Source of the DNA: Methylobacter sp. | GTDB lineage: Bacteria > Pseudomonadota > Gammaproteobacteria > Methylococcales > Methylomonadaceae | DNA length: 64,000 nt | Assembly: GCA_028712225.1 (NCBI GenBank) | Contig: JAQTQN010000002.1 | Location: 746-64,745, forward strand | Direction of reading: 5' to 3' | In this document: positions 46,577 to 64,000 of the stretch, in pieces | How positions within the stretch are numbered: position 1 is the stretch's first letter | How the letters are laid out: each line of letters starts with the position of its first letter | Translations under genes and position numbers: made by a program | Notes under the pieces: model-generated | What the model was told of the DNA's origin: nothing | The model's input: only the letters and a program-made list of their open reading frames with translations | Database searches by the model: none

Positions 46577-47770
46577 TTAGCTTTTATTAGGCCGTAACCG
46601 TGTATAAAAAAATACCAGCGGTCGCATTATGTAATGCAATATAAATAGCTTATCAGGTAGCGCTGATAGCAGTTTAATATCGTCTATATTTGGCGTAAAT
46701 ATTCCCATTAAGAGTAAGCGTTTATCAGCCCATCCCTGAGGAATTAATCTGGCATAAAAATACACGTCAAACCGAAAGCGCTTAGTATTTATTTTTTCTG
46801 ACAGATTAAGAAAATTGAGTGATTTATTAACCAAGATTCGCGTAACTTTATCCCGATGATAAAAATTAAGAATGGGAGCTGGTACTGGTGTTTCATACAA
46901 AGTATTAGCCAATATCCAGCTAACGGTTAACGACCTCATTGAGTTAAGCTCATTAGCTAAGAGCACCAAACTATCAATATTTAGCTGATCATTGGCTTTT
47001 AAATATTCAATATAAAGAACAATATCCAAGAGCCATTTAAGTCGATGGTAAAAAGTCTGGGTGCCGTGCCAACAAAGATAAATAATCTCATAATTACTTT
47101 TATCTTCTAAAGAAGAGCTGTTAAATAATTGCCGAGTATAATTTTTAGAAAGGGCGGTTGAATACTGGCATGGCCTTACATGTAGTTCGAGCGGTACACC
47201 TGTTTTACGGGTGTAAATGACGTCTTTGTTTGACTGTAAATAAAGATGTTGCTGATTTTTAGACAATTGATCGTAAACGTTACATTCATAACCTAAAGTC
47301 ATGATTTTTTTATTCGCTTTATTTATTTGATAAGCCGGGATAATCAAATCAATATCTTTTGAATACCGTTTTACAATATCCCCATACAGCTTTTTAGCTA
47401 AAGGAATGCCCTTTAATGTTCGAACGGGTATATCTGCGACTTTAAAAAGATGAAGTAACTCACCATAGGTTGTAAAACGTTGATAGCTTTGACGGATATT
47501 TTTCTGGTATTTTTTATGTAAATACGCGTGCAGATCGTCGGGGAATAAAGTAACAAAATGGTTTTTACTATTTAAATACACGCATGGACATATATGATGC
47601 TGCTCTAAGAGCTCTCTAAAATAGGTGACATCAATAATACTAATCAGTTCGGAGACTTGCTCGATTTGGGCCGCTGTCATTGTTGGCCGGCTTAAAAGAA
47701 CTGCGAGTTTTAACTCTGAACGGGCCAATTTAGCAAGGTGGTTCATTTCATACTTTTTGTGTGGCACCAT
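46577..47770 (-). CDS. Uncharacterised-nucleotidyltransferase family protein (NTP_transf_5-like)
   Basis: LKGIPLAKKLYGDIVKRYSKDIDLIIP...LGYE matches the signature LKG..L....Y.....R...DiDlL of this family, which is often linked to PqqD/HprK-like peptide-modification loci. Confidence 0.7.
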   Translation of the reverse strand: MVPHKKYEMNHLAKLARSELKLAVLLSRPTMTAAQIEQVSELISIIDVTYFRELLEQHHICPCVYLNSKNHFVTLFPDDLHAYLHKKYQKNIRQSYQRFTTYGELLHLFKVADIPVRTLKGIPLAKKLYGDIVKRYSKDIDLIIPAYQINKANKKIMTLGYECNVYDQLSKNQQHLYLQSNKDVIYTRKTGVPLELHVRPCQYSTALSKNYTRQLFNSSSLEDKSNYEIIYLCWHGTQTFYHRLKWLLDIVLYIEYLKANDQLNIDSLVLLANELNSMRSLTVSWILANTLYETPVPAPILNFYHRDKVTRILVNKSLNFLNLSEKINTKRFRFDVYFYARLIPQGWADKRLLLMGIFTPNIDDIKLLSALPDKLFILHYIMRPLVFFYTRLRPNKS

Positions 47771-47799
47771 TAGGACTTTCGCAACACTACCTGAATAGG

Positions 47800-48825
47800 T
47801 TATTTTGACGGGTATGATAACGAAACAATGCTACCTTGAATACTGACTTGCTCGGATCGTAACAACTCCAGCTTCTCATAATAAGGATAAACCGCTGCGC
47901 ACAGCTCGTTGCCAGTACGATATGCCGCCGGTTCCGGATCGCCCGTGAATTTTGCCGCATTTTTCGAATGCGAACCGGAACGGTTTTTCATGGCCTCCAA
48001 TTCTGCCGGAGAGGGCGCTATTGAAAATAAATCCAGCAGGTCGGTCCAAACAATTTGCGGCAGCTGGCTGTAGTTCAGCAAAATCAACTCATTCGCCTGA
48101 TCGCAAGCCGCTTTGAAAAAATGCCTCAGCACTTTTACTGAATATTTGTCCAACTCGCCCGGCATCAGTGGTTCGGAATCCAAGTCCAGCAGGGCAGGGT
48201 CCACCAAGCCCGGCACCATTTGCGGCCCTCTTTGCCGTTGATGGGACGCCAGCACCTCTTCCGGTTTTCGGTAAATAAAAATAAAAGGCGTATCGGGAAA
48301 AGCCTTGCGAAACAGCGGGAGGCTTTTTATATGCCAGCTATCGAGTTTGATAAAAAAATGGCGTTCTTCCGCGAAACGTCTTTGTCCTAATGCCCCAACC
48401 AATTGCCGCAATGTTTTTTCCGCACCGTTTTGTCCAGGTTGGGCATGGTAGAGACTTAGATAGGAATCGATGATAGGCGGTTCCGACAGCACGATACAGC
48501 TGGGCAAGGAGGCGAATAATTGGGACAGCAGCGTCGAACCGCAACGCGAGGTATGAAAAATGAAAGCCGTTGGCGCCAGCGAGTTCTCGAAAGTATCCAG
48601 CGCATTGAAAGCCGTTTGCACGCAGAGCCTTTTATCCTGGTTGAGACTGGAGACACTATTATAAAAAAAAGGTTCGCTAAAGCGTTTTTCGCCGAAGAAG
48701 CGCCACCACAGTTTATCGATCCTGGCTACAACCGGATACCAGCCCGATAGGGATGGCAACTGTTCAAACGGCACATCTTGACCGTGAAGCAGTGCGCGCT
48801 CATTCGCGGAAAAATTTTCATTCAT
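47800..48825 (-). CDS. Sulfotransferase-family protein (Sulfotransfer_3-like)
   Basis: P-loop-like PAPS-binding motif FHTSRCGSTLLSQL. 4-nt overlap with the upstream hydroxylase gene. Confidence 0.55.
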   Translation of the reverse strand: MNENFSANERALLHGQDVPFEQLPSLSGWYPVVARIDKLWWRFFGEKRFSEPFFYNSVSSLNQDKRLCVQTAFNALDTFENSLAPTAFIFHTSRCGSTLLSQLFASLPSCIVLSEPPIIDSYLSLYHAQPGQNGAEKTLRQLVGALGQRRFAEERHFFIKLDSWHIKSLPLFRKAFPDTPFIFIYRKPEEVLASHQRQRGPQMVPGLVDPALLDLDSEPLMPGELDKYSVKVLRHFFKAACDQANELILLNYSQLPQIVWTDLLDLFSIAPSPAELEAMKNRSGSHSKNAAKFTGDPEPAAYRTGNELCAAVYPYYEKLELLRSEQVSIQGSIVSLSYPSK

Positions 48826-49715
48826 GAGCTTGTTCCAGATTTTTGCATGGCAATCAATCTTTTAGCCATCTGTTTTGCAGGCTCATCATTCATGGCGATT
48901 AAGCTCGAGATAATCGCCCCCACGTTTTTATCGTTAATCGAAGGATCGCCGTATTTGGGAGGAGCGTTCGGTACAAAACCGGCGTCCAAGAAAACTTTTT
49001 CCAACCAGGGATTGACGATGCAATCCAGCATCAGGTGAATTCTCGGATGCTTGCTTTCGTTGTTCACGCCGTGCAGGCAATTGGCGTTCAAATACCAGGC
49101 ATTCCCGGCGGAAAAGTGAATATCCTCATCTTCGACGGTAAAGCAGACTTCTGGTGTGGTTACTATCGGAATATGCAGACGAGCCATGCCATCTTCGAAT
49201 GAAGTTCCTTTATCCGTATGCATTTTGATTCGACTTCCCGCGCCCAGTGCCATCAATCGAACCGAAGTTTTCTCGCACTCGAAAGTATCGATGACTTCCT
49301 GAAAATAGGGGCAGCGTCCGAGAATGTCGGTGTCCTCGTAATCCACATTGGGCAAGCAAAGAATATGATCCGATCTCCCGTCCAGCGAACGAAGCGGCAC
49401 GCAACTCCAATCATTTTCATAGGCGGCGGTATTGACATGGGCGATCCACTCCGCTTCTCTTATTTTCGAGAGGTCTTCGTTCAGGCGGCGGACATCGAAA
49501 AAAAAGGGCAATTTGAGGTATCTGGTCTTATGAGACATGGATTTTTTGAGGTGGTGTATCTTCGTTGTCTTCCTTGCCAAGGTGACCGTGATTTTTGCCA
49601 CATCTGGAAGATGAAGATTCAGGGGCACGCATAGCCAAAAATCGGAATTTTTTGCATTTCCGCCCCAGTATAGCCACATGAATTTTATTTTAAAAGCGGC
49701 TTTCATCAGTGCCAT
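48822..49715 (-). CDS. Aspartyl/asparaginyl beta-hydroxylase-family (cupin, 2OG/Fe) protein
   Basis: MHTDKG...ARLHIPIVT...GNAWYLNANCLHGVNNES...RIHLMLD matches the Asp_Arg_Hydrox pattern. Confidence 0.8.
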   Translation of the reverse strand: MALMKAAFKIKFMWLYWGGNAKNSDFWLCVPLNLHLPDVAKITVTLARKTTKIHHLKKSMSHKTRYLKLPFFFDVRRLNEDLSKIREAEWIAHVNTAAYENDWSCVPLRSLDGRSDHILCLPNVDYEDTDILGRCPYFQEVIDTFECEKTSVRLMALGAGSRIKMHTDKGTSFEDGMARLHIPIVTTPEVCFTVEDEDIHFSAGNAWYLNANCLHGVNNESKHPRIHLMLDCIVNPWLEKVFLDAGFVPNAPPKYGDPSINDKNVGAIISSLIAMNDEPAKQMAKRLIAMQKSGTSS

Positions 49716-49985
49716 TTTGCATGGAGCCGATCAATAAACGCTCAAGAGTACATTTGAAAGTCGGGGGTAAAAAAACTACCGGAGCTTGTCAATCTGGCGC
49801 GGCTGTGCGTATTTCTTGTAGTCTGCAATTTCGTAGCGTTTGATGACTCTATTCCCTTCTTTTAAACTTTATGCGGAGGCTCTCATTGTGGTTCTATTCC
49901 CTGGATTAGTTACACGAAATGCTGCGCATTGGTATTGTGATAAAATTATTTCTTACTCGAAGAAGTTCAACTTGATTAGGTTGTT

Positions 49986-50465
49986 ATGCTTAAAGATATT
50001 CAATTCAGACCTATTACAAAAGACGATATGGACTTTCTACACAAGGTCTATGCCAGTACCCGCGAGCTTGAATTGCAGCAAACTGATTGGAACGATGAGC
50101 AGAAAAAAGCCTTTGTCGATATGCAGTTTAATGCGCAGCATACGTTTTATATGCAAAATTATCATGACGCGACCTTTGAGGTTATTTCCTACAAGGGCGC
50201 TCCAGCGGGAAGGCTTTATCTTCTAAAGAGCCCCAAAGAACTGCTGATTGTCGACATTACCCTTTTGCCCCGATTCTGTGGTCAGGGTATCGGAAGCGAA
50301 ATTCTTGGTCAACTGATGCGGGAAGCAGCGGAAACCGATAGGTCACTTTTGATTCACGTCGAAAAGTTCAACCCCGCCCTTAAGCTCTACACTCGGCTCG
50401 GATTTAAGGTTGTTGAGGATAAGGATGTCTATTTCTACATGGAATGGAAAAAGGAAAAGGGGTAA
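49986..50465 (+). CDS. GNAT-family N-acetyltransferase
   Basis: Acetyl-CoA motif A RFCGQGIGSEILGQL and the C-terminal YTRLGFK. Confidence 0.8.
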   Translation: MLKDIQFRPITKDDMDFLHKVYASTRELELQQTDWNDEQKKAFVDMQFNAQHTFYMQNYHDATFEVISYKGAPAGRLYLLKSPKELLIVDITLLPRFCGQGIGSEILGQLMREAAETDRSLLIHVEKFNPALKLYTRLGFKVVEDKDVYFYMEWKKEKG

Positions 50466-50473
50466 ACGTTTGA

Positions 50474-51217
50474 ATGGATACGCCGGATAAGCCATGTTCT
50501 GATAGCGCCGTTATTAATCCCTCGCTTTCCTTGCTGGCAAAATGGATCAACCCGTTACATTTTCAAATGGAGAATCTTCAAGCCAGCCATAAACGGCTTG
50601 AATCCGATCCTCTTTCTCTTCTTGTCCTCGATGACTTCCTGCTGCCTAGCGTTGCCAATAGAGTAGCCAATTTTCTTCGGGAAGAGGCAGAGTATAAACG
50701 GGAATATCAAAGCCGCAGCAAGGAGTTTCTCAATCAAGACGCATGGGAAGAACTGCCGGAAGCGGAGCGCCTTTATCGGTTCCTGGTTATCCATAGGGTT
50801 AAACCTTCGTGCCTGATGAGCAAAAATTGGCTGACCTTTCTTGCTTTCAACGATATATTCAAGCAGCCTCCCTGTTTTTCTTTCATGGAATCGGTTTCCG
50901 GAATGCAATTTTGCGATGCCAGGATTGCCGGAATACATGGGCACGAAGCCGAAGATATGATCACATGGCACGCTGACGCAGGACGTAACAAGGATTTTTG
51001 CGGGACCTTGTACCTTGCCCCCGATTGGAACGAAAGCGACGGCGGTGAACTGGAAATTAAACGCGAAAGTGAGGAAAATTACCTGATAACGCCCACCTTT
51101 AACCGTCTGGTGCTTTTCAAAACCGATAAACAAACCGTACACCGGGTAAGGCCTCATGCACCCTCAGCAGTGGATAAAGTGCGGTATTCCTATGTGTTCT
51201 GGTATAGAAAAGTTTAA
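50474..51217 (+). CDS. 2OG-Fe(II) oxygenase (proline-hydroxylase-like)
   Basis: WHADAG...GGELEI...NRLVLF...HRV pattern (HxD...H...R). Confidence 0.7.
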   Translation: MDTPDKPCSDSAVINPSLSLLAKWINPLHFQMENLQASHKRLESDPLSLLVLDDFLLPSVANRVANFLREEAEYKREYQSRSKEFLNQDAWEELPEAERLYRFLVIHRVKPSCLMSKNWLTFLAFNDIFKQPPCFSFMESVSGMQFCDARIAGIHGHEAEDMITWHADAGRNKDFCGTLYLAPDWNESDGGELEIKRESEENYLITPTFNRLVLFKTDKQTVHRVRPHAPSAVDKVRYSYVFWYRKV

Positions 51218-51368: not shown

Positions 51369-52613
<1,245 letters not shown>

Positions 52614-52713: not shown

Positions 52714-53526
52714 ATGAAAACCGCAACATTTTTTCTCTCTACCGGTCGATGCGGCACCCAATGGCTTACCGCGAATTTGATTGCCGCTGGCGAAGAGAAC
52801 GCTGTTATTGAACACGAACCACTGCATGAGCGTTACTACTCAAGAATAATGCGTGGTAGCTATGATCCGGAAAAGACTGGCAACGCTACGGAAATCCTCT
52901 CCCATTGCGAAAAGATTGAAGAAATTCTGAAGGATAAATCCTATATCGAATGCGGTTGGCCGGCATGGGGAGCCGTCCCCTACCTTTTGCAGCGCTTTAA
53001 GGGCAGGATTAAGATTGTCCATCTTGTTCGGCATCCTATCCCAGTTGCATGTTCGTGGGTTTCCCACAGGGCTTTTTGCCCGCCACTTATTCCCGGACTT
53101 CCTTTTCAGGAAAAGATATTGGCTTCACCCTTTGACGAGGGAACGGCTTTTCCCCGCTATTGCGAACGGTGGGATAGTATGAATCCTTTTGAAAAAGCTC
53201 TGTTTTTCTGGTCGGAAGTCAATGTCCTCGGCTTGGAACTTGAAAAATCGACAAATACTCCTTGGCTGCGAATACGCTTTGAAGACTTATTTTATGGAGA
53301 TGCTCTATTGGACTTATTTGATTTTCTTAAAGTTACTGCACCGGAAAATAGGGGGGGGGCGTTTGAAAAAACGAAGGACGATTTTCACTATCTTTGTGAC
53401 GCCTGGTGGAATCCGATGGATATTCAAAAACATCCGGAAGTCATGAAAGTCGCTACACAGCTCGGATACAATTCCCTCGACTGTGACGAGGAAAAGTTAC
53501 GGAGGCGCTACTACCCCTTTTTTTAG
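52714..53526 (+). CDS. Putative sulfotransferase-like protein
   Basis: N-terminal STGRCGTQWL P-loop-like motif and an RFEDL segment. A weaker assignment than the other two. Confidence 0.45.
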   Translation: MKTATFFLSTGRCGTQWLTANLIAAGEENAVIEHEPLHERYYSRIMRGSYDPEKTGNATEILSHCEKIEEILKDKSYIECGWPAWGAVPYLLQRFKGRIKIVHLVRHPIPVACSWVSHRAFCPPLIPGLPFQEKILASPFDEGTAFPRYCERWDSMNPFEKALFFWSEVNVLGLELEKSTNTPWLRIRFEDLFYGDALLDLFDFLKVTAPENRGGAFEKTKDDFHYLCDAWWNPMDIQKHPEVMKVATQLGYNSLDCDEEKLRRRYYPFF

Positions 53527-53634: not shown

Positions 53635-53916
53635 ATGACACAAATTTCACTTACCTCAACTGTTTGCCAGTCTGAAGGCCACGTATCGGCTGTACTCGAT
53701 GAAGAAGTTGTCCTGATGAGCATTGAGAAAGGGGCTTATTTTGGTTTGAACAGAGTCCTGAGCTGTATCTGGCAAATACTGGAGACTCCCACCACCGTGT
53801 CTCAACTATGCGCAATCCTTCAGGATGAATACGACGTGGAGCCGGAAGTTTGTAAACGCGATGTATTCGAAGCCCTGGAAAAACTGGCGGAAAACAAGCT
53901 AATAACTGTATATTGA
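53635..53916 (+). CDS. PqqD-family peptide chaperone (lasso B1 / RRE)
   Basis: 93 aa. EVVLMSIEKGAYFGLNRVLSCIWQILETPTTVSQLCAILQDEYDVEPEVCKRDVFEALEKLAENKLI is a textbook PqqD/RRE pattern. Confidence 0.85.
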   Translation: MTQISLTSTVCQSEGHVSAVLDEEVVLMSIEKGAYFGLNRVLSCIWQILETPTTVSQLCAILQDEYDVEPEVCKRDVFEALEKLAENKLITVY

Positions 53917-53942: not shown

Positions 53943-54833
53943 ATGTACAGATACAGCATCTATGGTTTGACGGTCTCTTCGGAACTGGAATGTCCCCTAT
54001 TACTTTCGGCAAAGGAACAAGTCGATATAACAATTCGTTTCGGGGCGATACCTTCCTGCTGCATTTCCGCCGACACGCACAAAGGGGCCAACTTTATCGG
54101 CAACGGTAAATTGCTGCTGGATATTCAGGAAATCGCAAAATATCTGATCAGTGATGGCAATGCAGTTCTCATTGAACCTTATCCCAATGCCAAGGAAGAA
54201 ATGATACGGCTTTTCCTGTTGGGCAGCGCACTGGGAATTCTTCTCCACCAGCGCGACATACTTCCTCTGCACGGTTGCGGGATCGTGTATAACGACAAAG
54301 CCATCCTGTTCCTCGGTGAAACGGGAATCGGCAAATCGACTCTTGCGGAAACTTTTCGCAGAAAAGGCTATAAGCTTTTAACAGACGATGTTTCAGCGCT
54401 TTGCTTTTCAAATGATGCTTCCGTCAAGGTCTTTCCGGCCTATCCTAAGATAAACTTGATGGAAGAAACGGCAAAAAACTTCAATATTCCGATAGAAGGC
54501 CTCCCTGAGGCACATCCGCAAAAAAGGAAATATTCTATACCGGTAGGTGAGAGCTTTTGCCCCGATCCAAAACCCTTGTCCCGGATTTATATTCTGCACC
54601 AGACCGATCAGAAAAGCATTCGCCTTGAAGTACCTCAAAAAATAGCCGCCATTCCCTTTCTGACACACAACACCTACCGGAAGCAGGTAATCGAGAAAAT
54701 GGGGCTTCTACAGCGGCACATCGATCAATGCGCCCATCTTGCAGATAACTACCCGGTCAGGTTGCTCTCTCGACCCGACGACTTATCCCGTCTCCCGGAA
54801 TTGGCTGATTGCCTGGAAAGTGATTTTCTATGA
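53943..54833 (+). CDS. HprK-related serine kinase (paralog 1)
   Basis: ILPLHGCGIVYNDKAILFLGETGIGKSTLAETFRRKGYKLLTDDV is equivalent to the HPr-kinase C-terminal domain with a P-loop. Confidence 0.8.
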   Translation: MYRYSIYGLTVSSELECPLLLSAKEQVDITIRFGAIPSCCISADTHKGANFIGNGKLLLDIQEIAKYLISDGNAVLIEPYPNAKEEMIRLFLLGSALGILLHQRDILPLHGCGIVYNDKAILFLGETGIGKSTLAETFRRKGYKLLTDDVSALCFSNDASVKVFPAYPKINLMEETAKNFNIPIEGLPEAHPQKRKYSIPVGESFCPDPKPLSRIYILHQTDQKSIRLEVPQKIAAIPFLTHNTYRKQVIEKMGLLQRHIDQCAHLADNYPVRLLSRPDDLSRLPELADCLESDFL

Positions 54834-55693
54834 AGGGTAACATTATCTGGATAGCTTCTTACCCAAAATCCGGCAACACCTGGTTCAGGATATTTCTTTC
54901 CTGCTTGCTGGAGGAAACTGCTTCAGAACCGGACATTAATCAAATAGGTACCGACGGGATTGCCAGTTCGAGAATGCTCTTCGAGCAATGCACTGGTCTT
55001 GATTCTGCCAATCTCACGCCTAAGGAAATCGCAGCTCTTCGCCCTGCTGTCTATAACTATTTATCGGCGACACTTCAAAATGATCTCAAGATCAAGGTGC
55101 ATGATGCCTATCAAATCCTTCTCAACGGCATCCCGCTGTTTCCGGTTACAGCCACAAAAGCCGCTTGTTATCTTATTCGCAACCCCCTCGATATTGCAGC
55201 TTCTTATGCGCATCATTGTGGTGACAGCCTAGATGAGACCATAGACAAAATGAATAATTCCGACTGGAGTCTCGGCAAACAAACGCTGAACGCCACAGCC
55301 CAACTTCCTCATTTTCTTGGAAGTTGGTGCCACCATGTAAAAAGCTGGATGGAATCCACGCATTTTCCGGTCTGTTTGCTTCGTTATGAAGACATGCACC
55401 TGCAACCTCTGGAAACCTTTAGCAAAGCGGTGGTCGCCATAGGCATCGAAAAATCCCCGGAGGAAATTACTAGAGCGATTAAAGCCTCTTCCTTTGAAAA
55501 ACTCAAAAAACAGGAACAGGAGTCCGGCTTCCGGGAACGCCCCCATACTTCAAGTTTTTTTTTTCGTTCGGGCAAGATCGGCTCCTGGCGCGACAGCCTT
55601 ACCGAGAAGCAGGCCAGCCTGATTATCGAAAACCATACTGAAACAATGAGGCAATACGGTTATCTCGATAGCCGGGGAAACCCGACTTTTTAA
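54830..55693 (+). CDS. Sulfotransferase-domain protein (cytosolic ST-like)
   Basis: The 5'-PSB motif YPKSGNTW, a 3'-PB-like region (LLRYEDM) and a C-terminal FFRSGKIGSWRD. 4-nt overlap with the upstream kinase gene. Confidence 0.85.
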   Translation: MKGNIIWIASYPKSGNTWFRIFLSCLLEETASEPDINQIGTDGIASSRMLFEQCTGLDSANLTPKEIAALRPAVYNYLSATLQNDLKIKVHDAYQILLNGIPLFPVTATKAACYLIRNPLDIAASYAHHCGDSLDETIDKMNNSDWSLGKQTLNATAQLPHFLGSWCHHVKSWMESTHFPVCLLRYEDMHLQPLETFSKAVVAIGIEKSPEEITRAIKASSFEKLKKQEQESGFRERPHTSSFFFRSGKIGSWRDSLTEKQASLIIENHTETMRQYGYLDSRGNPTF

Positions 55694-55705: not shown

Positions 55706-56590
55706 ATGAATGTTTTGCTTTATGGGCTTTCCTGGTCGTTACCCTTTTTAACACCGTGTCTCCAGCTAACAGAAAAACCGGCAGAGATTACCGTCGTTTT
55801 GGGAGAGTTTAATGAGGACAACGTCTCCTGGAGTCATGTTGGAGTCTGTTACAAGGCCTCACCCGGCGCATACTTTTTGCTTGTCCCCGGAGTCGCACGT
55901 TTCCTGCTCACCAACGGGAATACAGTAATAATTGATGCACAAAAACATGTCTTGAAGGAAGAAATCCTGCATTTCCTTTTCAACCCCGTTGCCGGGGCGC
56001 TACTTATGCAGCGGGGAATTCTTCCCTTGCAGGCAAGCGCCGTCGAAAAAGACGGGAAAGCCGCTATCTTGCTGGGTGGTTCCGCCTCAGGGAAATCCCT
56101 GATAGCGGCAGGCCTGATGCAGCGAGGGTTCAAGGTAATAACGGATAATGTTTGCGCCGTGCATTCAGGAGAAAATCCGATGCTAAAAGCCGGATATCCC
56201 CATTTGCTCCTGTGGAAAAGGGCGTTACAGGAACTGGGTTACGATCCAACCGGACTTTGCAAATTTCGGCAAAACATAGAAAAATACCGCCTGCCTATCG
56301 CTAAAGACTGTTATGCCATTGAAGCGCCTATAGAAAGACTTTATCTTTTAGCCCATAGCAACGAGAACACCTATCCGGAAACCCGGATCACGGGGCGAAA
56401 TAAGTTCACTCTACTTTTGGACTGTGTTTACCATAACCCGCTCATCGAAGCATTCGGCATGCAGACAGAAATGTACCAGATCATAATTTCACTGGCGCAG
56501 CGGCTTCCGATGAAGAAGGTTGCCTCACCTATGTCCATCCAGAACGCACGGAAGTTCATAGACGCTTTTGCCAGTCGGTATCAGTCATGA
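55706..56590 (+). CDS. HprK-related kinase paralog 2 (divergent active-site context)
   Basis: ILPLQASAVEKDGKAAILLGGSASGKSLIAAGLMQRGFKVITDNV retains the P-loop, but His becomes Gln and DD becomes DN relative to paralog 1. Confidence 0.7.
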   Translation: MNVLLYGLSWSLPFLTPCLQLTEKPAEITVVLGEFNEDNVSWSHVGVCYKASPGAYFLLVPGVARFLLTNGNTVIIDAQKHVLKEEILHFLFNPVAGALLMQRGILPLQASAVEKDGKAAILLGGSASGKSLIAAGLMQRGFKVITDNVCAVHSGENPMLKAGYPHLLLWKRALQELGYDPTGLCKFRQNIEKYRLPIAKDCYAIEAPIERLYLLAHSNENTYPETRITGRNKFTLLLDCVYHNPLIEAFGMQTEMYQIIISLAQRLPMKKVASPMSIQNARKFIDAFASRYQS

Positions 56591-57822
56591 CCGCCAGACA
56601 AAAAATTCGCAAACGCTTTTCACTGTTATTGGGAAACTGTAACGTTTATTTCTGTCTGAAGCCGAAATCCCGGCAAAATCCAATCGAGAAACTTCGCACC
56701 GCAACCGACCACTATTTTCTTTATAACCAAGCTGCCGTGATTCGGATTCCGGTTAAAATGGTGGTATTTTTTTGTTGGCCGCTCATTGCCGTCAGGTTAG
56801 CCATTCGCCACTACGTTCTGTTTGGCACGGTTGTAAAGCTGGAATATGGCATCGGGATGTTTCAGCAGTTCACACAACTGCTTTCTCTGGCATGGTTAGA
56901 GTTTATTCATCCCCGCTATTACTATCAATACCGGCTCTTTGACAAAACGCGTATGCAAAAACGAAGTGCATACCTGTTTCATCGGAGGAACCAATCCCTC
57001 TTCATGGCATTAAATGGGTTCGTATCGGGTGAGCTGATCAACAACAAGGAAAAATTTGCAGAATTCTGTCTAAAAAACGATCTTCCTACACCGAAAACCC
57101 TCGCTCTCTTTGAAAATGGAAATATGGCAATCAAGGTGGCTGCCGAACTTTGGCAAAAAAAAGACATCGTCATAAAACCTATTAACGGTCATATGGGGAG
57201 GGATATTCAATTCGGTTATGCAGAAGGGAACGGAAGCTATCGATACCGGGGCAAAACTTCCACTGTTGAAGAACTCCTGCAACAAATCGCCCTTGATTCA
57301 GCAGGAGAACCTTTCCTCGCTCAAGAACGGCTCTACAACCACCCGGAACTTTATCCTCTGTCAAACGAATACTTGGCAAGTATCCGCATTGTTACTTTTC
57401 TGGGACAGGATAATGCACTGGCTTTTCTTGCGGCTTATATAGGGCTGCCTTATGACGCTATTACCGTTAGCAATGAAGGCAGGGATTTTCCTCTGGACTT
57501 GGCAACAGGGAAAATTCTTGCTCGCCCCCTGCACCCCATAATGCCCGATTACAAAAAGGAACTCACTGAGGCAAGCCAACTGGCGGTGGGTAATACGCTT
57601 CCCTACTGGCAACAGGCAAAAGAGCTGGTATGTAAAGCCCATCGCTTGATGCCGGATTACTTTTCCCTCGGTTGGGATATCGCCATCACCGCAAACGGCC
57701 CCGTTATACTGGAAACCAACATCGGTTGGGATACCGACTCGATACAATATTTCCACGACCTTCCCTTGGGCGATACGGAATTTGTTCGTTGCGCAGTGGC
57801 AAGACTAAATAGCTTGAAGTGA
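56587..57822 (+). CDS. ATP-grasp enzyme (sugar-transfer-associated / alpha-L-glutamate-ligase-related type)
   Basis: DIVIKPINGHMGRDI and LGWDIAITANGPVILETNIGWD resemble the ATPgrasp_ST family. 4-nt overlap with the upstream gene. Confidence 0.7.
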   Translation: MTARQKIRKRFSLLLGNCNVYFCLKPKSRQNPIEKLRTATDHYFLYNQAAVIRIPVKMVVFFCWPLIAVRLAIRHYVLFGTVVKLEYGIGMFQQFTQLLSLAWLEFIHPRYYYQYRLFDKTRMQKRSAYLFHRRNQSLFMALNGFVSGELINNKEKFAEFCLKNDLPTPKTLALFENGNMAIKVAAELWQKKDIVIKPINGHMGRDIQFGYAEGNGSYRYRGKTSTVEELLQQIALDSAGEPFLAQERLYNHPELYPLSNEYLASIRIVTFLGQDNALAFLAAYIGLPYDAITVSNEGRDFPLDLATGKILARPLHPIMPDYKKELTEASQLAVGNTLPYWQQAKELVCKAHRLMPDYFSLGWDIAITANGPVILETNIGWDTDSIQYFHDLPLGDTEFVRCAVARLNSLK

Positions 57823-57856: not shown

Positions 57857-59719
57857 ATGAGCGTTATTTACGGAATTATTCATAGCAAAGAAAAGCGGCT
57901 TGAAAAAACGGAAGCGGAAATTCTGCGCAAAAGCCTCGACTATGTTCGCTTCGACCGTGAAGGGATATGGCAAGAAGAAAACACCCATTTAGGCGTATTG
58001 CTGAGGCAACTGGTACAAAACGATGCGGAACAGGCACCTCTGTACGACCCGATTAGCGGCTTGACAATCTGTGCCGATGCCCGTCTCGATAATCGGGATG
58101 AATTGGCGGAAAAACTTGAAATATCCCAAGAAAAACGGCTCAACGTTCCCGACAGCCTCCTTATTCTGAGGGCATACCAGAAATGGGGCGTGAACTCGCC
58201 GGAACAGCTACTAGGGGACTTTGCCTACGCTATTTACGAGAAAAACAGCGGGAGGCTTTTTTGCGCACGGGATCACCTGGGTATCAGGCCATTTTATTAT
58301 TACTGGATCGACGGTACTTTCTGCTTCTGCACCTTACACCCCCCTCTTATGGCAGTCTGCCCCGTCTCTCCAACACCTAATGACGCCTACATCGTCGCCT
58401 CTTTTATCCGATCCTATATGGAACTGACCCACTCCGTGGCGAATGAAATCAATCGGCTGCCACCGGCGCATTCCTTGTCGATAGATAACACCGGTTTGAA
58501 GGTTCACCGGTATTGGGCGCCTGAGTCAAACACCGTCTTGCAGCTTGCCGGCGAAGCGGAACATGCACAAGCCATGCGGGAAGTTTTCACGCAAGCGGTT
58601 GCATGCCGAACCAGAACGGATTGCCGTGTCGGCACCCATTTAAGCAGCGGACTTGATTCCGGCTCAATCACGGTTCTGGTCGCACGGGAATTACGCAAGG
58701 AGGGGAAAAGCCCGCTCGCCTTCTCCTGGTCTCCCGAACCGGAACATACAACGAAGAAACTCGGAGACGAACGCGACCTAATTCGGGACGTATGCCGCCA
58801 GGAAGAACTCGAATGCCATTTCTTGGATCAGACGCCGGAGGATGGCTATCGAATTTTGCAGGAAGCCATGTCCAGTTGGGGAGATAATTTGTGGTTCCAC
58901 GAGATAAAACATCTTCAAACTGCGTTAAGAGAGAACTGCCGGGTCATGTTAAGCGGCTGGGGCGGGGATGAGTTAACTTCTTTTAATGGGGATAGGGTTT
59001 ATCTGGCAGACTTCCTCCGAAGAGAAGGCTTTCTTCGCCTACTCTCAGAGATGTTTTGTCTGAGAATGAACCGGCACGGCTCCTTTCGCAGCATGGCGAA
59101 AGAAATCCTGTATCCTTTTATCCCCGATTTTCTTTACTATCGCTTTTTCAATTTATCCGTCCTAAGGGATAGCGAATCGCTCATCAGCTCCCGTTTTGCG
59201 AAAGATCTCCTAATAGGCAGACGGAAACGAGGCCGTTGGCAGCAAAGGGATATAAAAAAACTCCAAATACAATGGCTGAATGCGGGCTATTTCAATCAAC
59301 GAATCGAACGCTGGGCGGAATTGGGCGAAATGCATGGCGTCAACTACCTCTACCCCGTTTTTGACAAACGGGTCGTTGAATTCGTACTTTCGCTTCCGAA
59401 CGAGCAACTCTGCAGAAAAGGCTGGCGGCGCTTTCTTTTCCGTAGCGCGATGGAAGGCATATTACCACCATCGGTGCAGTGGAATCGATCCAAGGCTGAA
59501 ATGGCCTACGGTGAACATACGAACGCCGTCTGCTCAGTTTACTTTGAAAAAATTCAGCAAAATATACAGGAAGCAATGAACCTGCCGTTGTTCCAGCGCT
59601 ATTTTAAGCCTGAAGCCGTTGAAAAAATGCTCGCATCATCAAATACGACTCTAAAGCTAGTCATTCTTAATAGAGTTCATGCCTATGTAAAGTTTCTTGA
59701 CCAATCGTTTTCTCGATAG
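57857..59719 (+). CDS. Asparagine-synthetase-like lasso peptide cyclase (C protein)
   Basis: 620 aa. The PP-loop SSGLDSGS is present. The N-terminus MSVIYG lacks the Cys2 nucleophile of true AsnB, as in McjC-type lactam synthetases. Confidence 0.85.
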   Translation: MSVIYGIIHSKEKRLEKTEAEILRKSLDYVRFDREGIWQEENTHLGVLLRQLVQNDAEQAPLYDPISGLTICADARLDNRDELAEKLEISQEKRLNVPDSLLILRAYQKWGVNSPEQLLGDFAYAIYEKNSGRLFCARDHLGIRPFYYYWIDGTFCFCTLHPPLMAVCPVSPTPNDAYIVASFIRSYMELTHSVANEINRLPPAHSLSIDNTGLKVHRYWAPESNTVLQLAGEAEHAQAMREVFTQAVACRTRTDCRVGTHLSSGLDSGSITVLVARELRKEGKSPLAFSWSPEPEHTTKKLGDERDLIRDVCRQEELECHFLDQTPEDGYRILQEAMSSWGDNLWFHEIKHLQTALRENCRVMLSGWGGDELTSFNGDRVYLADFLRREGFLRLLSEMFCLRMNRHGSFRSMAKEILYPFIPDFLYYRFFNLSVLRDSESLISSRFAKDLLIGRRKRGRWQQRDIKKLQIQWLNAGYFNQRIERWAELGEMHGVNYLYPVFDKRVVEFVLSLPNEQLCRKGWRRFLFRSAMEGILPPSVQWNRSKAEMAYGEHTNAVCSVYFEKIQQNIQEAMNLPLFQRYFKPEAVEKMLASSNTTLKLVILNRVHAYVKFLDQSFSR

Positions 59720-60081
59720 GGCGACGGTTACTTCTACTTTATCGATTATACGGAAGCCCCTCATACCCGCCGGGAAGCGGGTATCCAGTGCCATGGATGG
59801 TAAGCTAAATCCATCCCTGGAGCATGAATTCGCTTCGCGCTTTAGCGGGGTCCGGCAATCCCTGCCGAAATGATGATTCTGGGTATTGTGTGTTTATTAA
59901 ATATGACAAAGTAGAATTACCGGCTCACCATTGACGGTAGTCAGAAAGATTAAAAGCGCTCGATTTTCTTGATAACTGCCAGCCGAAAACTGAAATCTAT
60001 GTAGTTATTTTTCTAATTTATGATAGGCTTTTATCCATTAAATCTTCAGTCAACCATCAGAATTAGTAAAGGATAGCTGCA

Positions 60082-60231
60082 ATGACCTGCATAGATAATA
60101 ACAGCTTGGAAATTGGTGCAAAGAAAACTTGGGAAAAACCTGAAATTTCGGAATTAAAGACCAGTCTAACGGAAAAAGTAGGAGGGAAAACAGTAACATC
60201 AACTGAAGGCGCTTTTTCACGTCCCAGTTAA
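60082..60231 (+). CDS. Candidate lasso precursor peptide (49 aa), absent from the ORF track
   Basis: MTCIDNNSLEIGAKKTWEKPEISELKTSLTEKVGGKTVTSTEGAFSRPS. AAGGA lies 8 nt upstream of the ATG and a terminator hairpin lies downstream. The leader has the pattern W-x-x-P-x-I-x-x-L...T. Gly-Gly is followed 8/9 residues later by Glu. The core is Ser/Thr-rich and ends in Ser. Confidence 0.65.
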   Translation: MTCIDNNSLEIGAKKTWEKPEISELKTSLTEKVGGKTVTSTEGAFSRPS

Positions 60232-60305: not shown

Positions 60306-60335
60306 CCTGACCGATCTTTTGGTCGGGTTTTTCAT
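60306..60335 (+). terminator. Rho-independent terminator after the precursor ORF
   Basis: CCTGACC-gatctttt-GGTCGGG followed by TTTTTCATTTT. Confidence 0.6.
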
Positions 60336-60790: not shown

Positions 60791-60798
60791 CCAATGTT

Positions 60799-61329
60799 TC
60801 AATTACGAGAAGGGAACATGCCCTGAATGCAGATGCAGTGATTGACAACTAGAGAGGGTTGTATATTGCTATGCGGCTGGCTGCCCCCCGCCGGAGCCAA
60901 AGCATTTGACCCCATCGTTACCATATTGGATGAGACCGGATTTGGTTCGAAGCGTTTGTTTGCTTTGTCTCTTGATGGGTAAACCGTTGCAGAAGGTGTC
61001 CCCTGTGTACCAACCACATCATCTCCGTAAAGAGTATGGGTATGGCCCGGGATCTGAGTGAGGTTAAGTGGAACTGTTGTGTCGCCTCCGGTGGAAGCGA
61101 AATTCCGTGTGGTAAGCCCCGGGCCGGTACCGGAATGCATAGGCGTTACTCCCTGTAGGTTGGGCAGTAAGTAGGTTGTCTGTCCATTGCCGCCAAATGC
61201 GTTGCCTATAACGGCAAAAAGTGCCGTATTTTGTTGAACGTACATCGTTTGACCGTTACACCAAGCCCAATCCCTTGGGGCATAGGTGTAAGGCAATAAC
61301 CTGATTTCACCAAAAAATGCTTGTGACAT
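60799..61329 (-). CDS. Phage-tail-collar-domain protein (MdpB-like), paralog 3
   Basis: FGEIRLLPYTYAPRDWAWCNGQ...QNTALFAVIGNAFGGNG.TTYLLPNLQG and the C-terminal HSNIQPSL...QGMFPSRN. Confidence 0.85.
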   Translation of the reverse strand: MSQAFFGEIRLLPYTYAPRDWAWCNGQTMYVQQNTALFAVIGNAFGGNGQTTYLLPNLQGVTPMHSGTGPGLTTRNFASTGGDTTVPLNLTQIPGHTHTLYGDDVVGTQGTPSATVYPSRDKANKRFEPNPVSSNMVTMGSNALAPAGGSQPHSNIQPSLVVNHCICIQGMFPSRN

Positions 61330-61338
61330 AATTCCTCC

Positions 61339-61890
61339 TTAGTTTTGTGTCGGGAAAATACCCGTCGTGGCAATGATGTAATTAAGAGCTAAAAATGGTG
61401 CGACGTTCGTATGAGTGGCAACAGCTCCCAGAGTGCCGCCTCCCGCAGCGGAAACTGAAGACGACAGAAAGGGTTTTACCGCTGTTGTGTCTGTCGTATA
61501 GGAAAAGTCGTCAGTTCCACTCGCATCGGCGGCCAATGTGTTATTTTGGGGAGCCGTTGAATTGGCCTGCTGACTTGTCGCCTGTATAGGGTGATTATGA
61601 GCCGGCATTTGAGCTTCGGTTAAGGCCACCGTCTCTGTGCCTGTCGATAAGCCGACAGCCCAATTTACTGTACCGCCGCCGGAAGCGATCCCCGCTCCAA
61701 CCGGCACCCTTCCCCGCATGTCAGGAACTTTAAAGGTGGTTGATCCATCTCCGCCGTAGGTTGTTCCGATCAGAGCAAAAAGCGCCTCATACTCAGAGAT
61801 ATTGAGGGCTTGACCATTGCAAAAAACATATCCGACAGGTGCATACTGACCGGCAAAAATAGTGATTTGTCCTACATAAGGTTGAGACAT
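61339..61890 (-). CDS. Phage-tail-collar-domain protein (MdpB-like), paralog 2
   Basis: YVGQITIFAGQYAPVGYVFCNGQALNISEYEALFALIGTTYGGDGSTTFKVPDMRGRVPVG and the C-terminal HTNVAPFL...TGIFPTQN. Confidence 0.85.
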   Translation of the reverse strand: MSQPYVGQITIFAGQYAPVGYVFCNGQALNISEYEALFALIGTTYGGDGSTTFKVPDMRGRVPVGAGIASGGGTVNWAVGLSTGTETVALTEAQMPAHNHPIQATSQQANSTAPQNNTLAADASGTDDFSYTTDTTAVKPFLSSSVSAAGGGTLGAVATHTNVAPFLALNYIIATTGIFPTQN

Positions 61891-61899
61891 AATTCCTCC

Positions 61900-62415
61900 T
61901 CAGTTACGTGCTGGGAAAAAGCCTTGCAAGGCGATACAAAAGCCTATGCATAAGGACGGTTGGATGTTGGTATGAGCCTGGCTTCCGCCGCTGTTGCTAC
62001 AGGTTCCCGGATTTAGCGCGACATAAGTTCCGGTATTAATATAAGTCGATTCTTGTGATGCAGCAAAAACCACCGGCGCTGGAAATGCAAATGCTGTACC
62101 TAGAGTGCTGACGGCATTCATGGCGTGGGTATGTTGAGGCAGGTTTGTGTTGGCAAGTGTTACCGTATCACTACCGCCGACTGTACCTTGAATATAATTT
62201 TGCCCAGAATGAATCCCGGCATGAATCGGCATGCGCCCCCTAAAATCGGGCAAATTGAAGTTTGTCGTCCCGTTACCGCCAAACTGGACGCCAAGCAAGG
62301 CATAAAGCGCCTGATTTTGACTAATAACTAATGTCTGTCCTATACAGGAAGCCCAACCTTTCGGCGCCCAGTTAAAGCCGAACATCCGAATTTCTCCAAC
62401 AAATGGATCACTCAT
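61900..62415 (-). CDS. Phage-tail-collar-domain protein (MdpB-like), paralog 1
   Basis: FVGEIRMFGFNWAPKGWASCIGQTLVISQNQALYALLGVQFGGNGTTNFNLPDFRGRMPIH and the C-terminal HTNIQPSL...QGFFPARN. Confidence 0.85.
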   Translation of the reverse strand: MSDPFVGEIRMFGFNWAPKGWASCIGQTLVISQNQALYALLGVQFGGNGTTNFNLPDFRGRMPIHAGIHSGQNYIQGTVGGSDTVTLANTNLPQHTHAMNAVSTLGTAFAFPAPVVFAASQESTYINTGTYVALNPGTCSNSGGSQAHTNIQPSLCIGFCIALQGFFPARN

Positions 62416-62492
62416 ATATACTCCTTAGTTCATAAAAATTTACTTCATTAACGTTGAAGGTTATCGAAAAGGCCATAACAATTCTTTGCTTT

Positions 62493-62852
62493 TCAACTTC
62501 CGACTGCAACAGGTTTCACTGAGTAACAGGCTTGGTATTGGTAACCCGTTACTACTCCTTTATCGTTTCTTATGTCCCCAACAGGTACGATAAAGAACTC
62601 GTGGTCTCCCAGTTTTTCTTGTCTTGCCATGTAACAGCCCTGCGGCAGAAAAAATTCCGGCCCATGAAAAAGCAGATTAAAACTGACAAAGGGGCCGCAG
62701 GGAGTTTCTTTGCTGACCTCAACTAACGTAAGATCAACATTTTCGAATTCCGGCTCCTTACCGATGTTAGCTGGATCGAAGTCAGGAATAACGAAAGCAA
62801 AAGTCGTATTAACGAGGGGAGAAAATAGTGCGGCTGAGATAAGGTGTGTCAA
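62493..62852 (-). CDS. Small hypothetical protein heading the tail-collar operon
   Basis: 119-aa ORF with a GGAGGAAT Shine-Dalgarno sequence. No motif recognised with certainty. I recall similar small proteins preceding tail-collar triplets in other proteobacteria (unverified). Confidence 0.5.
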   Translation of the reverse strand: MTHLISAALFSPLVNTTFAFVIPDFDPANIGKEPEFENVDLTLVEVSKETPCGPFVSFNLLFHGPEFFLPQGCYMARQEKLGDHEFFIVPVGDIRNDKGVVTGYQYQACYSVKPVAVGS

Positions 62853-63108
62853 AATTCCTCCTATTTAAAAATAGCACCTACGTTATGCGTAAGTCCCTTG
62901 AGCGAATAGTGATTTTCCGGGGGAGCTCGATTTGAATGTAATCGACGGATAACGGAGGCTAGAGTATGTTTTTTTTTAGGTTGCCGTCAATTAGATTTTG
63001 AGCCGGAGTGTATTTAAAACTGATATTCTGGAGCAGCTTCCAGTGGCGCTGTATGGCCAGCTTCTTTTTCATGCACTTGACACCCTGCCAGATGAACTGT
63101 GTTCGGTA

Positions 63109-63627
63109 TCATTTGATTGTCGAACGTGCGGAGACAAAACAGCTTACCACGGTGAATTGATCGAAGCTGATACCCCCGGTGACTGGAACTCGACCGACGG
63201 CCACCCAGGCATGGGCTGCCAGCATTGCATCGTCGGCATTGCGATTGAGGCCGAAAAATAAATTGTGCGGAACGCCGTAAAGCCCCAGCAAAATCTTTGC
63301 GGTCAGGGCTTGAGGAAAGCAGTTCGATTTCCACGGTGTGTAATTTGCCGCCATCCGCACTACTCTTGATATGGATAAGGCTTTGGCCTCAGCGCGGGAA
63401 TCGGCGAGCGGCACCCAAGGGGCAATGCCCTCATGCACTCCAAGACGGAGCACCAAGCGCCTGAATGGAATTGTCAGTATGACGAAACGGCTTGCCCCCA
63501 GCAATAACCAGACGGGAAGAAACCATAATTTCTCAAACCAAGGCCTATAAATGAAACTCCGCCCTTTGCGGATAAGTGTCGAAAAGATCATCATGTGAGT
63601 GATTGATTGGCTATTCGGGACAGGCAT
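63109..63627 (-). CDS. Lasso peptide biosynthesis B2 protein (transglutaminase-like leader peptidase)
   Basis: SNCFPQALTAKILL (catalytic Cys) and AHAWVAVG (His) are the hallmark of B2 / McjB C-terminal domains. 172 aa. Confidence 0.85.
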   Translation of the reverse strand: MPVPNSQSITHMMIFSTLIRKGRSFIYRPWFEKLWFLPVWLLLGASRFVILTIPFRRLVLRLGVHEGIAPWVPLADSRAEAKALSISRVVRMAANYTPWKSNCFPQALTAKILLGLYGVPHNLFFGLNRNADDAMLAAHAWVAVGRVPVTGGISFDQFTVVSCFVSARSTIK

Positions 63628-63818
63628 TTGATTATTCCTTCTCAGTATTTAGCGAAGCTGTATTGCATGAGTACCACAGCGTCTTATTTCCCCCATCATC
63701 TCTTGCACACAGGTATCTAAGAAGTTTTATTCTAGTATTTAAGATAAGTTCCGGTGTTTCGCAAAGGAATGATATGCCAATAAAGTCAGCAATCTCCAGC
63801 CCGGTTTTTTTATATGTG

Positions 63819-64000
63819 CTATGCAGTAAATAGCATCTTAGATCGGCAGCTTTCCTGCACATCGCTCCAGCTACCCTGTGCAACAATCTTTCCCGCCTCC
63901 ATTACCAACACCTGATCGGCATGCTGCAAAGTCGCCATCCGATGACCGATTGCGACAACAGTCAGGTCGCCGTGTAGATTAACAATAGCCTGCCGGATTC
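63819..64000 (-). CDS. ABC transporter ATP-binding domain, C-terminal end (gene continues beyond the window); probable McjD-like exporter
   Basis: Minus-strand translation gives IRQAIVNLHGDLTVVAIGHRMATLQHADQVLVMEAGKIVAQGSWSDV...* (H-loop region), with the stop at 63819-63821. It is not in the ORF track because the start is outside the window. Confidence 0.75.
   Translation of the reverse strand, partial: IRQAIVNLHGDLTVVAIGHRMATLQHADQVLVMEAGKIVAQGSWSDVQESCRSKMLFTA

Follow-up and report, generated by a model that had tools for sequence, protein, structure and literature searches.

A 64,000 nt stretch of DNA from Methylobacter sp. (GenBank assembly GCA_028712225.1, contig JAQTQN010000002.1; the whole stretch is referred to below as the window) ends in a dense gene cluster that runs from position 46577 to the window edge. 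The locus is a split-B lasso peptide cluster of the kinase-associated (paeninodin/SyanK-like) kind. It also holds three tail-collar genes (PF07484) and a DUF6916 gene, which lie at 60799–62852 between the precursor gene and the gene for the leader peptidase B2. A first-pass annotation, made from the sequence alone, had read the locus as one lasso cluster with an unusually rich set of tailoring enzymes and did not contain the collar and DUF6916 genes. Families were assigned from a listing of open reading frames (ORFs) combined with Pfam and NCBIfam scans against curated cut-offs. All the ORFs described earlier were recovered at the same positions, and every one is intact. The many 4 nt gene overlaps that had been reported came down to three junctions (48822–48825, 54830–54833 and 56587–56590). 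The features of the locus are:

46577–47770, minus strand: NTP_transf_5 nucleotidyltransferase, lasso module (PF14907, 126 bits).
47800–48825, minus strand: Sulfotransfer_3-like protein, goes with the collar cassette (PF13469, 29.5 bits, cut-off 27; 4 nt overlap with the hydroxylase gene).
48822–49715, minus strand: oxygenase of the Asp/Asn beta-hydroxylase family, probably collar module (PF05118, Asp_Arg_Hydrox, 60 bits).
49986–50465, plus strand: GNAT acetyltransferase, core member of the tail-collar cassette (PF00583, 35 bits).
50474–51217, plus strand: prolyl-hydroxylase-like 2-oxoglutarate (2OG) oxygenase, 247 aa, clade-specific (PF13640, 2OG-FeII_Oxy_3, 55 bits; also Ofd1_CTDD).
51371–52613, plus strand: degenerate IS3-family insertion sequence (IS), with fragmented OrfA and OrfB frames.
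52714–53526, plus strand: divergent sulfotransferase-like protein, 270 aa, goes with the collar cassette (sub-threshold Sulfotransfer_1).
53635–53916, plus strand: PqqD-type leader-recognition protein, lasso B1 (PF05402, 66.5 bits).
53943–54833, plus strand: HprK1, HprK-like P-loop kinase (profile against HPr kinases in the PDB, E 1.4e-6).
54830–55693, plus strand: Sulfotransfer_1 sulfotransferase, lasso module (PF00685, 96 bits).
55706–56590, plus strand: HprK2, HprK-like paralogue, clade-specific (hhalign to HprK1, E 7e-35).
56587–57822, plus strand: ATPgrasp_ST ATP-grasp ligase, clade-specific (PF14397, 111 bits).
57857–59719, plus strand: lasso macrolactam cyclase (C), 620 aa (NF033535, 368 bits).
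59724–59916, no strand: insertion of 193 bp resembling a miniature inverted-repeat transposable element (MITE), with inverted ends and a TTAC duplication.
60082–60231, plus strand: precursor peptide, 49 aa, with a predicted 33-aa leader and core GGKTVTSTEGAFSRPS (syntenic conservation).
60799–61329, minus strand: tail-collar protein 1, Collar1 (PF07484, 73 bits).
61339–61890, minus strand: tail-collar protein 2 (PF07484, 97 bits).
61900–62415, minus strand: tail-collar protein 3, Collar3 (PF07484, 93 bits).
62493–62852, minus strand: DUF6916 protein, collar-cassette member (PF21880, 53 bits).
63109–63627, minus strand: lasso leader peptidase B2, transglutaminase-like, Cys/His (NF033537, 83 bits).
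63819–64000, minus strand: 3′ end of a gene for an ABC exporter, truncated at the window edge (59-aa C-terminal fragment).

The best NCBIfam model for the cyclase is that of the lasso isopeptide cyclases, NF033535, although its 368 bits lie below the cut-off of 525. Models for AsnB scored 179 (TIGR01536) and 104 bits, again under their own cut-offs; with NF033535 at about twice the TIGR01536 score, an ordinary AsnB was ruled out. The earlier description of a lasso-type cyclase lacking Cys2 was thus upheld, with no grouping with AsnB: residue 2 is Ser, and the M1-S2 start is invariant in 12 relatives. There are 11 close relatives (48–95% identity), the next best match stands at 38%, and the other cyclases used below to seed genome loci share only 31–37% identity with it. 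The PqqD protein, described before as the recognition element of a ribosomally synthesised peptide with post-translational modifications (RiPP), passes Pfam PF05402 (66.5 bits, cut-off 23.4) and just misses the lasso-specific PqqD model NF033536 (77 versus 80). B2 passes its model (NF033537, 83 bits, cut-off 33); among 41 homologues, Cys103 is kept by 100% and His139 by 98%. The ABC exporter end also agrees with the earlier reading; the 59 residues encoded at 63822–63998 match many ABC exporter models weakly (E 1e-11 to 1e-8), far under whole-protein cut-offs. Full-length ABC genes adjoin B2 or NTP_transf_5 in two Opitutaceae loci, L026 and L049, and PqqD, HprK and B2 neighbour the cyclase in most of 79 related loci. 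Within the close clade, L086 is the most distant member; there, B2 directly follows PqqD (1707–2428), the usual split-B layout, and the region covered contains no collar genes. This suggests that B1 and B2 became separated in the window secondarily, when the collar cassette was inserted.

Both HprK-like kinases score under the curated cut-offs of Pfam (22 and 18 bits) and TIGRFAM (about 30 bits on TIGR04352, cut-off 200, and 15–17 bits on TIGR04355), and they are homologues, not members, of these two equivalogs. Their family profiles have solved HPr kinases as top PDB matches (E 1.4e-6 for HprK1 and 3.7e-3 for HprK2), and an hhalign comparison shows them to be clear paralogues (E 7e-35). The two HprK-like kinases reported before therefore stand as homologues, with both under the family thresholds. 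The Walker A motif (P-loop) and a TDD motif are invariant in HprK1; HprK2 has TDN in place of TDD.

Three sulfotransferase-like genes had been counted, and they differ in standing. The Sulfotransfer_1 enzyme is a firm assignment (96 bits), the Sulfotransfer_3 protein passes PF13469 only marginally (29.5 versus 27), and the 270-aa protein has no Pfam match above threshold. For the last of these, Sulfotransfer_1 is the best sub-threshold family in five of six orthologues (best E 0.004), the alignment spans both motifs that bind 3′-phosphoadenosine 5′-phosphosulfate (PAPS), and the top PDB profile match is an aryl sulfotransferase (E 0.27); a single-sequence AlphaFold model was unusable (predicted local distance difference test score 38.7). 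Sub-threshold Pfam, hhalign and PDB matches together with the motifs thus point, less firmly, to a sulfotransferase-like protein. The other enzymes named in the first-pass annotation (NTP_transf_5, ATP-grasp, Asp/Asn hydroxylase, second 2OG oxygenase and GNAT) all pass Pfam cut-offs. The ATP-grasp protein is rare, with 13 protein clusters above 50% identity in a search of 5.8 billion proteins; on NCBIfam it weakly matches MptN and RimK, which are amino-acid ligases. One homologue at 30% identity (P0138) adjoins an Asn-synthase-like gene, which scored only 52 bits with the clade cyclase profile on a 4.7-kb contig bearing no other lasso gene, and another (P0141) has an unrelated genomic context; no function was deduced from either.

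The 49-aa precursor-like ORF proved to be conserved downstream of the cyclase in seven syntenic loci, invariably ending in Ser. An ORF of 46–51 aa follows the cyclase in L002, L083, L085, L086, L088 and L089, with a leader motif KTWEKPEISELKTSLT and a variable core; the motif proposed to be bound by PqqD in the window precursor is WEKPEISELKTSLT. Around 50 distant loci have precursor-like ORFs whose leader contains the motif W-x-x-P-x-[ILV] and whose last residue is Ser. Such a C-terminal Ser is the hallmark of the kinase-associated lasso family, whose kinases phosphorylate that residue (PMC8498205). The canonical relatives L011 (GGPLQPQPE-DSVYRPS), L024 and L033 have a 9-residue ring, from Gly, Ser or Ala at position 1 to Glu9, and a 7-residue tail ending in PS. 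The window core fits the same layout (GGKTVTSTE-GAFSRPS). This G1...E9 ring register is a prediction, not a result; on it, the unmodified lasso would have a computed mass of 1562.769 Da, with each phosphate adding 79.966 Da. Cores of the clade are rich in Ser and Thr and nearly always carry Lys3, and the window core contains neither Asp nor Asn.

Collar1 has orthologues in the same position in L002, L083, L085 and L088, and in these loci, where the contig is long enough, all three collar genes and DUF6916 follow the precursor gene. The three collar genes represent distinct paralogue groups that are conserved across the clade, which suggests that their products form a heterotrimer. An HxH motif (His95 and His97 of Collar3) is invariant in 22 collar homologues, and a C-terminal G-x-[FY]-P-x-R-[NSTDP] motif is also kept. 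The HxH motif recalls the Zn-binding His pair of gp12, the short tail fibre protein of phage T4. The collar cassette is abundant, with at least 586 relatives confirmed in a metagenome scan that used an 8-sequence alignment as query.

We asked which genes keep company with which using close-clade profiles, one per window gene, searched against all ORFs of 79 distant genome loci seeded by the cyclase and 80 metagenome loci seeded by the collar proteins. The latter are the best 80 matches, mainly on short contigs; 21 of them span at least 8 kb and are called long here. HprK1 was present in 61 of the 79 cyclase-seeded loci, PqqD in 53, B2 in 46, Sulfotransfer_1 in 36 and NTP_transf_5 in 20, and each of the five was found in none of the 80 collar-seeded loci. 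HprK1, Sulfotransfer_1 and NTP_transf_5 go with the lasso core. Three further genes have a narrow distribution: HprK2 occurred in one cyclase-seeded locus and no collar-seeded one, and neither the ATP-grasp gene nor the 247-aa 2OG oxygenase gene was found in any locus of either set, the orthologues of the oxygenase being confined to the close clade. HprK2, the ATP-grasp ligase and the second 2OG oxygenase are thus restricted to a small clade.

The remaining enzymes follow the collars. Collar genes occur in five of the 79 cyclase-seeded loci (L011, L026, L044, L045 and L049). The GNAT was found in 48 of the 80 collar-seeded loci, including 19 of the 21 long ones, and in three cyclase-seeded loci, all three with collars. 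DUF6916 behaved similarly (14 of 21 long collar-seeded loci; three of 79 cyclase-seeded, all with collars). Sulfotransfer_3 was present in two loci of each set and the 270-aa gene in two cyclase-seeded and one collar-seeded, the cyclase-seeded loci having collars in every case. Within the 79 loci, the association of these four genes with collars has Fisher p values of 1e-4 to 3e-3. Outside the close clade, Sulfotransfer_3 occurred only in L026, L049, L142 and L161, and the 270-aa gene only in L026, L049 and L161, always with collars. The nearest homologues of the Asp/Asn hydroxylase (100–145 bits) come from L142 and L161, two collar loci devoid of lasso genes, where the hydroxylase and Sulfotransfer_3 genes adjoin the collars as a pair; lasso-only loci gave at most 43 bits. 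L161 combines the hydroxylase, both sulfotransferase-like genes and the GNAT with three collar genes, and its 20 kb hold no lasso gene; L142 is the only collar-seeded locus with an Asn-synthase-like gene.

We define the collar cassette as one to three PF07484 genes with an adjacent GNAT of the same family and DUF6916, whether or not a hydroxylase and a sulfotransferase accompany them, a set that is complete in the window and matched by 14–19 of the 21 long collar-seeded loci. The window GNAT is 10 kb from the collars because the lasso genes are nested between them. The GNAT, Sulfotransfer_3, the 270-aa protein and the Asp/Asn hydroxylase go with this cassette, which normally stands alone. About half of the enzymes that the first-pass annotation had assigned to one rich lasso tailoring set accordingly belong elsewhere. 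That annotation had itself proposed co-conservation with the core genes as a check on its tailoring genes: HprK1, Sulfotransfer_1 and NTP_transf_5 are co-conserved with the core, and the GNAT, both weak sulfotransferase-like proteins and the hydroxylase are not. Of the modifications it had foreseen, phosphorylation and possibly sulfation of the product are still reasonable; the acyl and hydroxy groups lose support, since the GNAT and hydroxylase track collars and the core has no Asp or Asn.

Seven close-clade loci all keep PqqD, HprK1, Sulfotransfer_1, HprK2, the ATP-grasp ligase, the cyclase and the 46–51-aa ORF. The closest genome in the species collection, L002, is a metagenome-assembled genome (MAG) of Sideroxydans, and a 95%-identical relative, P0001, has one member of its 90% cluster annotated from a Methylococcales MAG. 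Three loci of the clade have an extra gene of 350–364 aa, lacking a Pfam match, between ATP-grasp and cyclase (L085 8952–10004, L088 8910–10004, L086 6605–7657), which has no counterpart in the window; the L086 copy matches the window Sulfotransfer_3 profile weakly (30 bits).

Two insertions, neither of them in the first-pass annotation, distinguish the window from its 95%-identical relative L082. The IS3 element separates the 2OG gene from the 270-aa gene, two genes that are adjacent in relatives, and interrupts the plus-strand unit; in L082 it is absent and there is a 5-bp overlap at the junction. The MITE, also absent from L082, has terminal inverted repeats TTCTACTTTATC and GACAAAGTAGAA flanked by a TTAC duplication, and widens the gap between cyclase and precursor to 362 nt, compared with 66–121 nt in relatives. 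The three transcription units proposed before are broadly right, with terminator-like hairpins after the precursor (60306–60327) and after Collar1 (60791–60765), except that the plus unit is broken by the IS3 remnant. Values of dN/dS were 0.09–0.34 for all genes of both modules, the exception being the short PqqD gene compared with L082 (0.61 at a dS of 0.016); against L082, 11 of 12 genes gave 0.10–0.34. Purifying selection acts on every gene of the two modules, and the locus is therefore not inactivated by the IS and MITE.

The collar cassette lies inside a lasso cluster in the window and in L002, L083, L085 and L088, and in other gene orders in the two Opitutaceae loci and in L011, a Gammaproteobacteria MAG with the order HprK1, Sulfotransfer_1, GNAT, Collar, PqqD, cyclase. 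Nesting of this kind extends across at least three phyla. All five distant lasso loci with collars carry Sulfotransfer_1, compared with 31 of the 74 others (p 0.017).

From these gene families, their synteny, co-occurrence and selection, we think it probable, with some reserve, that the locus consists of a kinase-type lasso pathway and a tail-collar cassette that are physically interleaved and inherited together, and that the weak sulfotransferases, the hydroxylase and the GNAT act on the collar proteins. The chemical steps and substrates of this scheme are proposals. In the lasso module, PqqD (B1) would bind the leader motif of the 49-aa precursor, and HprK1 would phosphorylate the C-terminal Ser of the still-linear peptide, as do the kinases of paeninodin and Sphingobium. 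NTP_transf_5 would probably extend that phosphate, by analogy with hexose transfer in pseudomycoidin biosynthesis, and the Sulfotransfer_1 enzyme would add sulfate to the peptide. Presence of Sulfotransfer_1 did not correlate with a Tyr in the last seven precursor residues (19/10 versus 12/15, p 0.18), and Tyr sulfation by this enzyme was rejected on that ground. B2, using Cys103 and His139, would then cut off the leader, the cyclase would link Gly1 to Glu9 to give the 9-residue ring and 7-residue tail, and the product would be secreted by the ABC exporter. HprK2 and the ATP-grasp ligase, a translationally coupled and clade-specific pair, may add a further modification, candidate sites being Ser/Thr residues of the ring, Lys3, which is conserved in the clade, or the carboxylate at the C-terminus. 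The collar module would comprise the three gp12-like paralogues, DUF6916, the GNAT and the overlapping Asp/Asn hydroxylase/Sulfotransfer_3 pair, possibly joined by a second pair, the 2OG oxygenase with the 270-aa sulfotransferase-like protein. Its enzymes most likely hydroxylate and then sulfate the collar proteins, as predicted for related neighbourhoods (Iyer et al. 2010), and probably do not act on the lasso peptide.

Several observations weigh against this division of labour. All three transcription units mix genes of the two modules, and the cassette is nested, not merely adjacent, so the peptide could be a substrate of collar-module enzymes as well. Inside the close clade, the GNAT, the 2OG oxygenase and the 270-aa gene are as conserved as the core. 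Distant genes of the Asp/Asn hydroxylase family occur in 15 of the 79 lasso loci, 14 of them without collars, and the collar-seeded comparison draws on a best-80 selection of mainly short contigs. On the lasso side, the specific curated cut-offs are missed by the cyclase, by the two HprK-like proteins and by PqqD on its NCBIfam lasso model. In the one register that yields G1...E9, the leader has ...SLTEKV as its end, and the canonical Thr at -2 is then missing; the leader Thr is at -4 in the window. Across the clade its position varies from -1 to -5, which makes the cleavage site and ring register uncertain.

The nesting itself may reflect a functional partnership or the piling up of accessory modules in variable islands, and we regard partnership as the unlikelier of these explanations. 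In its full form, it would make the lasso pathway and the collar cassette one system, spread as a unit over at least three phyla, in which a phosphorylated and sulfated lasso peptide works with, or is loaded on, a hydroxylated and sulfated heterotrimeric tail-fibre-like protein, with HprK2 and the ATP-grasp ligase installing a new modification. The decorated peptide might serve as ligand or cargo, or the pair might form a surface or antagonism device. If true, this would be a RiPP–protein partnership of a previously undescribed kind. The recurrence of nesting in three gene orders (the Methylococcales/Sideroxydans clade, L026 and L049 of the Opitutaceae, and L011, a Gammaproteobacteria MAG), the mixed transcription units and the shared Sulfotransfer_1 of the five collar-bearing loci all speak for such a link. 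Five of 79 distant lasso loci with collars within 10 kb also exceed a 1% background (binomial p 1e-3), a background that is assumed, not measured. Set against this, there is no lasso gene near 20 of the 21 long collar loci and there are no collars in 74 of the 79 lasso loci; L026 and L049 belong to one family, so the lineages are not all independent. Accessory modules often gather in variable islands, this locus holds both an IS and a MITE, and the sequence suggests no mechanism. A single system of this kind is, in our estimate, a doubtful prospect.

Somewhat less credible again is the idea that all thirteen enzymes tailor one lasso peptide, giving phospho, sulfo, hydroxy, acyl and aminoacyl groups, with the collar and DUF6916 proteins as passengers or in immunity or export. 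Tight gene packing, the three pairs with 4 nt overlaps and the presence of both gene sets in every transcription unit argue for it, as does conservation of the set, apart from the hydroxylase and Sulfotransfer_3, with the core across a clade whose cyclase identity falls to 48%. A Ser/Thr-rich core with a conserved Lys3 could, moreover, accept sulfate, phosphate or acyl groups. The distribution of the enzymes tells against it: the GNAT is in 19 of 21 long collar loci, none of which has PqqD, HprK, B2, Sulfotransfer_1 or NTP_transf_5, and only L142 has an Asn-synthase-like gene. The GNAT, Sulfotransfer_3 and the 270-aa gene are found in none of the 74 distant lasso loci that lack collars, the core offers the hydroxylase no Asp or Asn, and L161 has these enzymes with collars and no lasso genes.

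Decay or silencing of the cluster in this strain, with the IS3 remnant and MITE, both absent in L082, uncoupling the operon so that no mature product forms, is very improbable: the two elements sit between genes, the degenerate state of the IS shows that its insertion is not recent, the neighbouring genes are still intact like every other ORF, and the dN/dS values, which show purifying selection with only the short PqqD gene raised, led us to reject it.

The surroundings of the locus are of two kinds. Directly upstream (~33500–46530) lies a low-GC (35–43%) polysaccharide biosynthesis cluster, with Wzz-like, glycosyltransferase, epimerase, Wzy-like, methyltransferase and Wzx-like flippase genes by sequence reading, and a prolyl-hydroxylase-like 2OG oxygenase (38487–39272) confirmed by Pfam. 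Wzy_C and Bac_transf genes also adjoin B2 in L083. Positions 1–33000 are ordinary chromosomal DNA, encoding a type II/IV secretion ATPase with a STAS domain, a GGDEF-EAL protein, a PAS histidine kinase, a CBM96 protein, a secretin, phosphofructokinase and an ABC-F protein; no PAPS-synthesis gene was among the ten proteins scanned there.

On the preferred two-module reading, the lasso pathway is less extravagant than the first-pass annotation held, and its most interesting aspect is the nesting of the collars, which offers a testable handle on both systems. Lasso clusters with kinase, sulfotransferase and nucleotidyltransferase are widespread (Sulfotransfer_1 is in 36 of the 79 related loci), and the clade is a compact target for sulfated lasso peptides and for the roles of the second HprK paralogue and the ATP-grasp ligase. 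For genome mining the locus is a warning: packed and overlapping genes around a RiPP core need not encode tailoring enzymes, and here about half come from another cassette.

Lasso clusters with a kinase and neighbouring sulfotransferase or nucleotidyltransferase genes are already known from genome mining (PMC8498205), and for both the kinase and the nucleotidyltransferase there are characterised examples from other organisms. The closest described systems are the clusters of paeninodin (PadeK), ThcoK and Sphingobium yanoikuyae SyanK (Zhu et al. 2016, as summarised in PMC8498205). By published description, the window shares with them a B protein split into B1 and B2, a cyclase of the Asn-synthetase-like type, an ABC exporter and a homologue of HPr kinase. 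The C-terminal Ser is the only core feature that their precursors have in common, and the window precursor ends in Ser too (PMC8498205). The Sphingomonas locus L075 has the same set of HprK1, Sulfotransfer_1, PqqD and cyclase as the window. Unlike the PadeK, ThcoK and SyanK clusters, the window has a second HprK paralogue and an ATPgrasp_ST ligase, both limited to a small clade; its B2, ABC and NTP_transf_5 genes are separated from B1 and C by the collar cassette, and its leader lacks a Thr at -2. The pseudomycoidin cluster of Bacillus pseudomycoides (PsmK and PsmN; Zyubko et al. 2019, via PMC8498205) is, again by description, similar in joining a kinase and a nucleotidyltransferase; it comes from a Firmicute and lacks the sulfotransferase, ATP-grasp and collar genes, all three of which the window has. 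PsmN puts a hexose on phospho-Ser (PMC8498205), so the earlier statement that the chemistry of both the nucleotidyltransferase and the sulfotransferase in paeninodin-type clusters is uncharacterised does not wholly apply to the former. For the latter, neither the 2021 review PMC8498205 nor our literature searches yielded a characterised lasso-associated sulfotransferase.

For a natural lasso cluster with an ATP-grasp enzyme, none was found in the literature searched. Graspetides also use ATP-grasp enzymes; the window protein belongs to PF14397 (ATPgrasp_ST), and the cyclised core of the window precursor would have no free side-chain carboxylate. Lasso precedents for acetylation and hydroxylation are albusnodin, in which a GNAT acetylates Lys, and canucin, in which CanE beta-hydroxylates a C-terminal Asp, both acting on the linear precursor (PMC8498205). 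Unlike in albusnodin, the GNAT family of the window travels with collar cassettes; unlike canucin, the window core lacks Asp and Asn and ends in Ser.

The only PDB sequence match of the collar proteins is T4 gp12 (PDB 1ocy and 1pdi; E 1.5e-3, residues 6–70). Unlike gp12, the window collars are 171–183 aa proteins without a fibre shaft, occur as three paralogues and have no other phage genes near. The literature searched contained nothing linking tail collars with lasso peptides, nothing on DUF6916 and no experimental study of the collar cassette. Genomic neighbourhoods that combine beta-hydroxylase, sulfotransferase and acetyltransferase genes with tail-collar proteins were described by Iyer, Abhiman, de Souza and Aravind (2010; PMC2938197), in passages that propose hydroxylation and then sulfation of the collars and make no mention of PqqD, HPr kinase or transglutaminase. 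The neighbourhood in those passages and the window share a T4 gp12-like collar, a 2OG enzyme of the Asp/Asn beta-hydroxylase family, P-loop sulfotransferases and a GNAT. Unlike the neighbourhoods described there, the window showed no PAPS synthetase or PhyH-methyltransferase fusion among the genes scanned, and its cassette, with three collar paralogues and DUF6916, is nested in a RiPP cluster.

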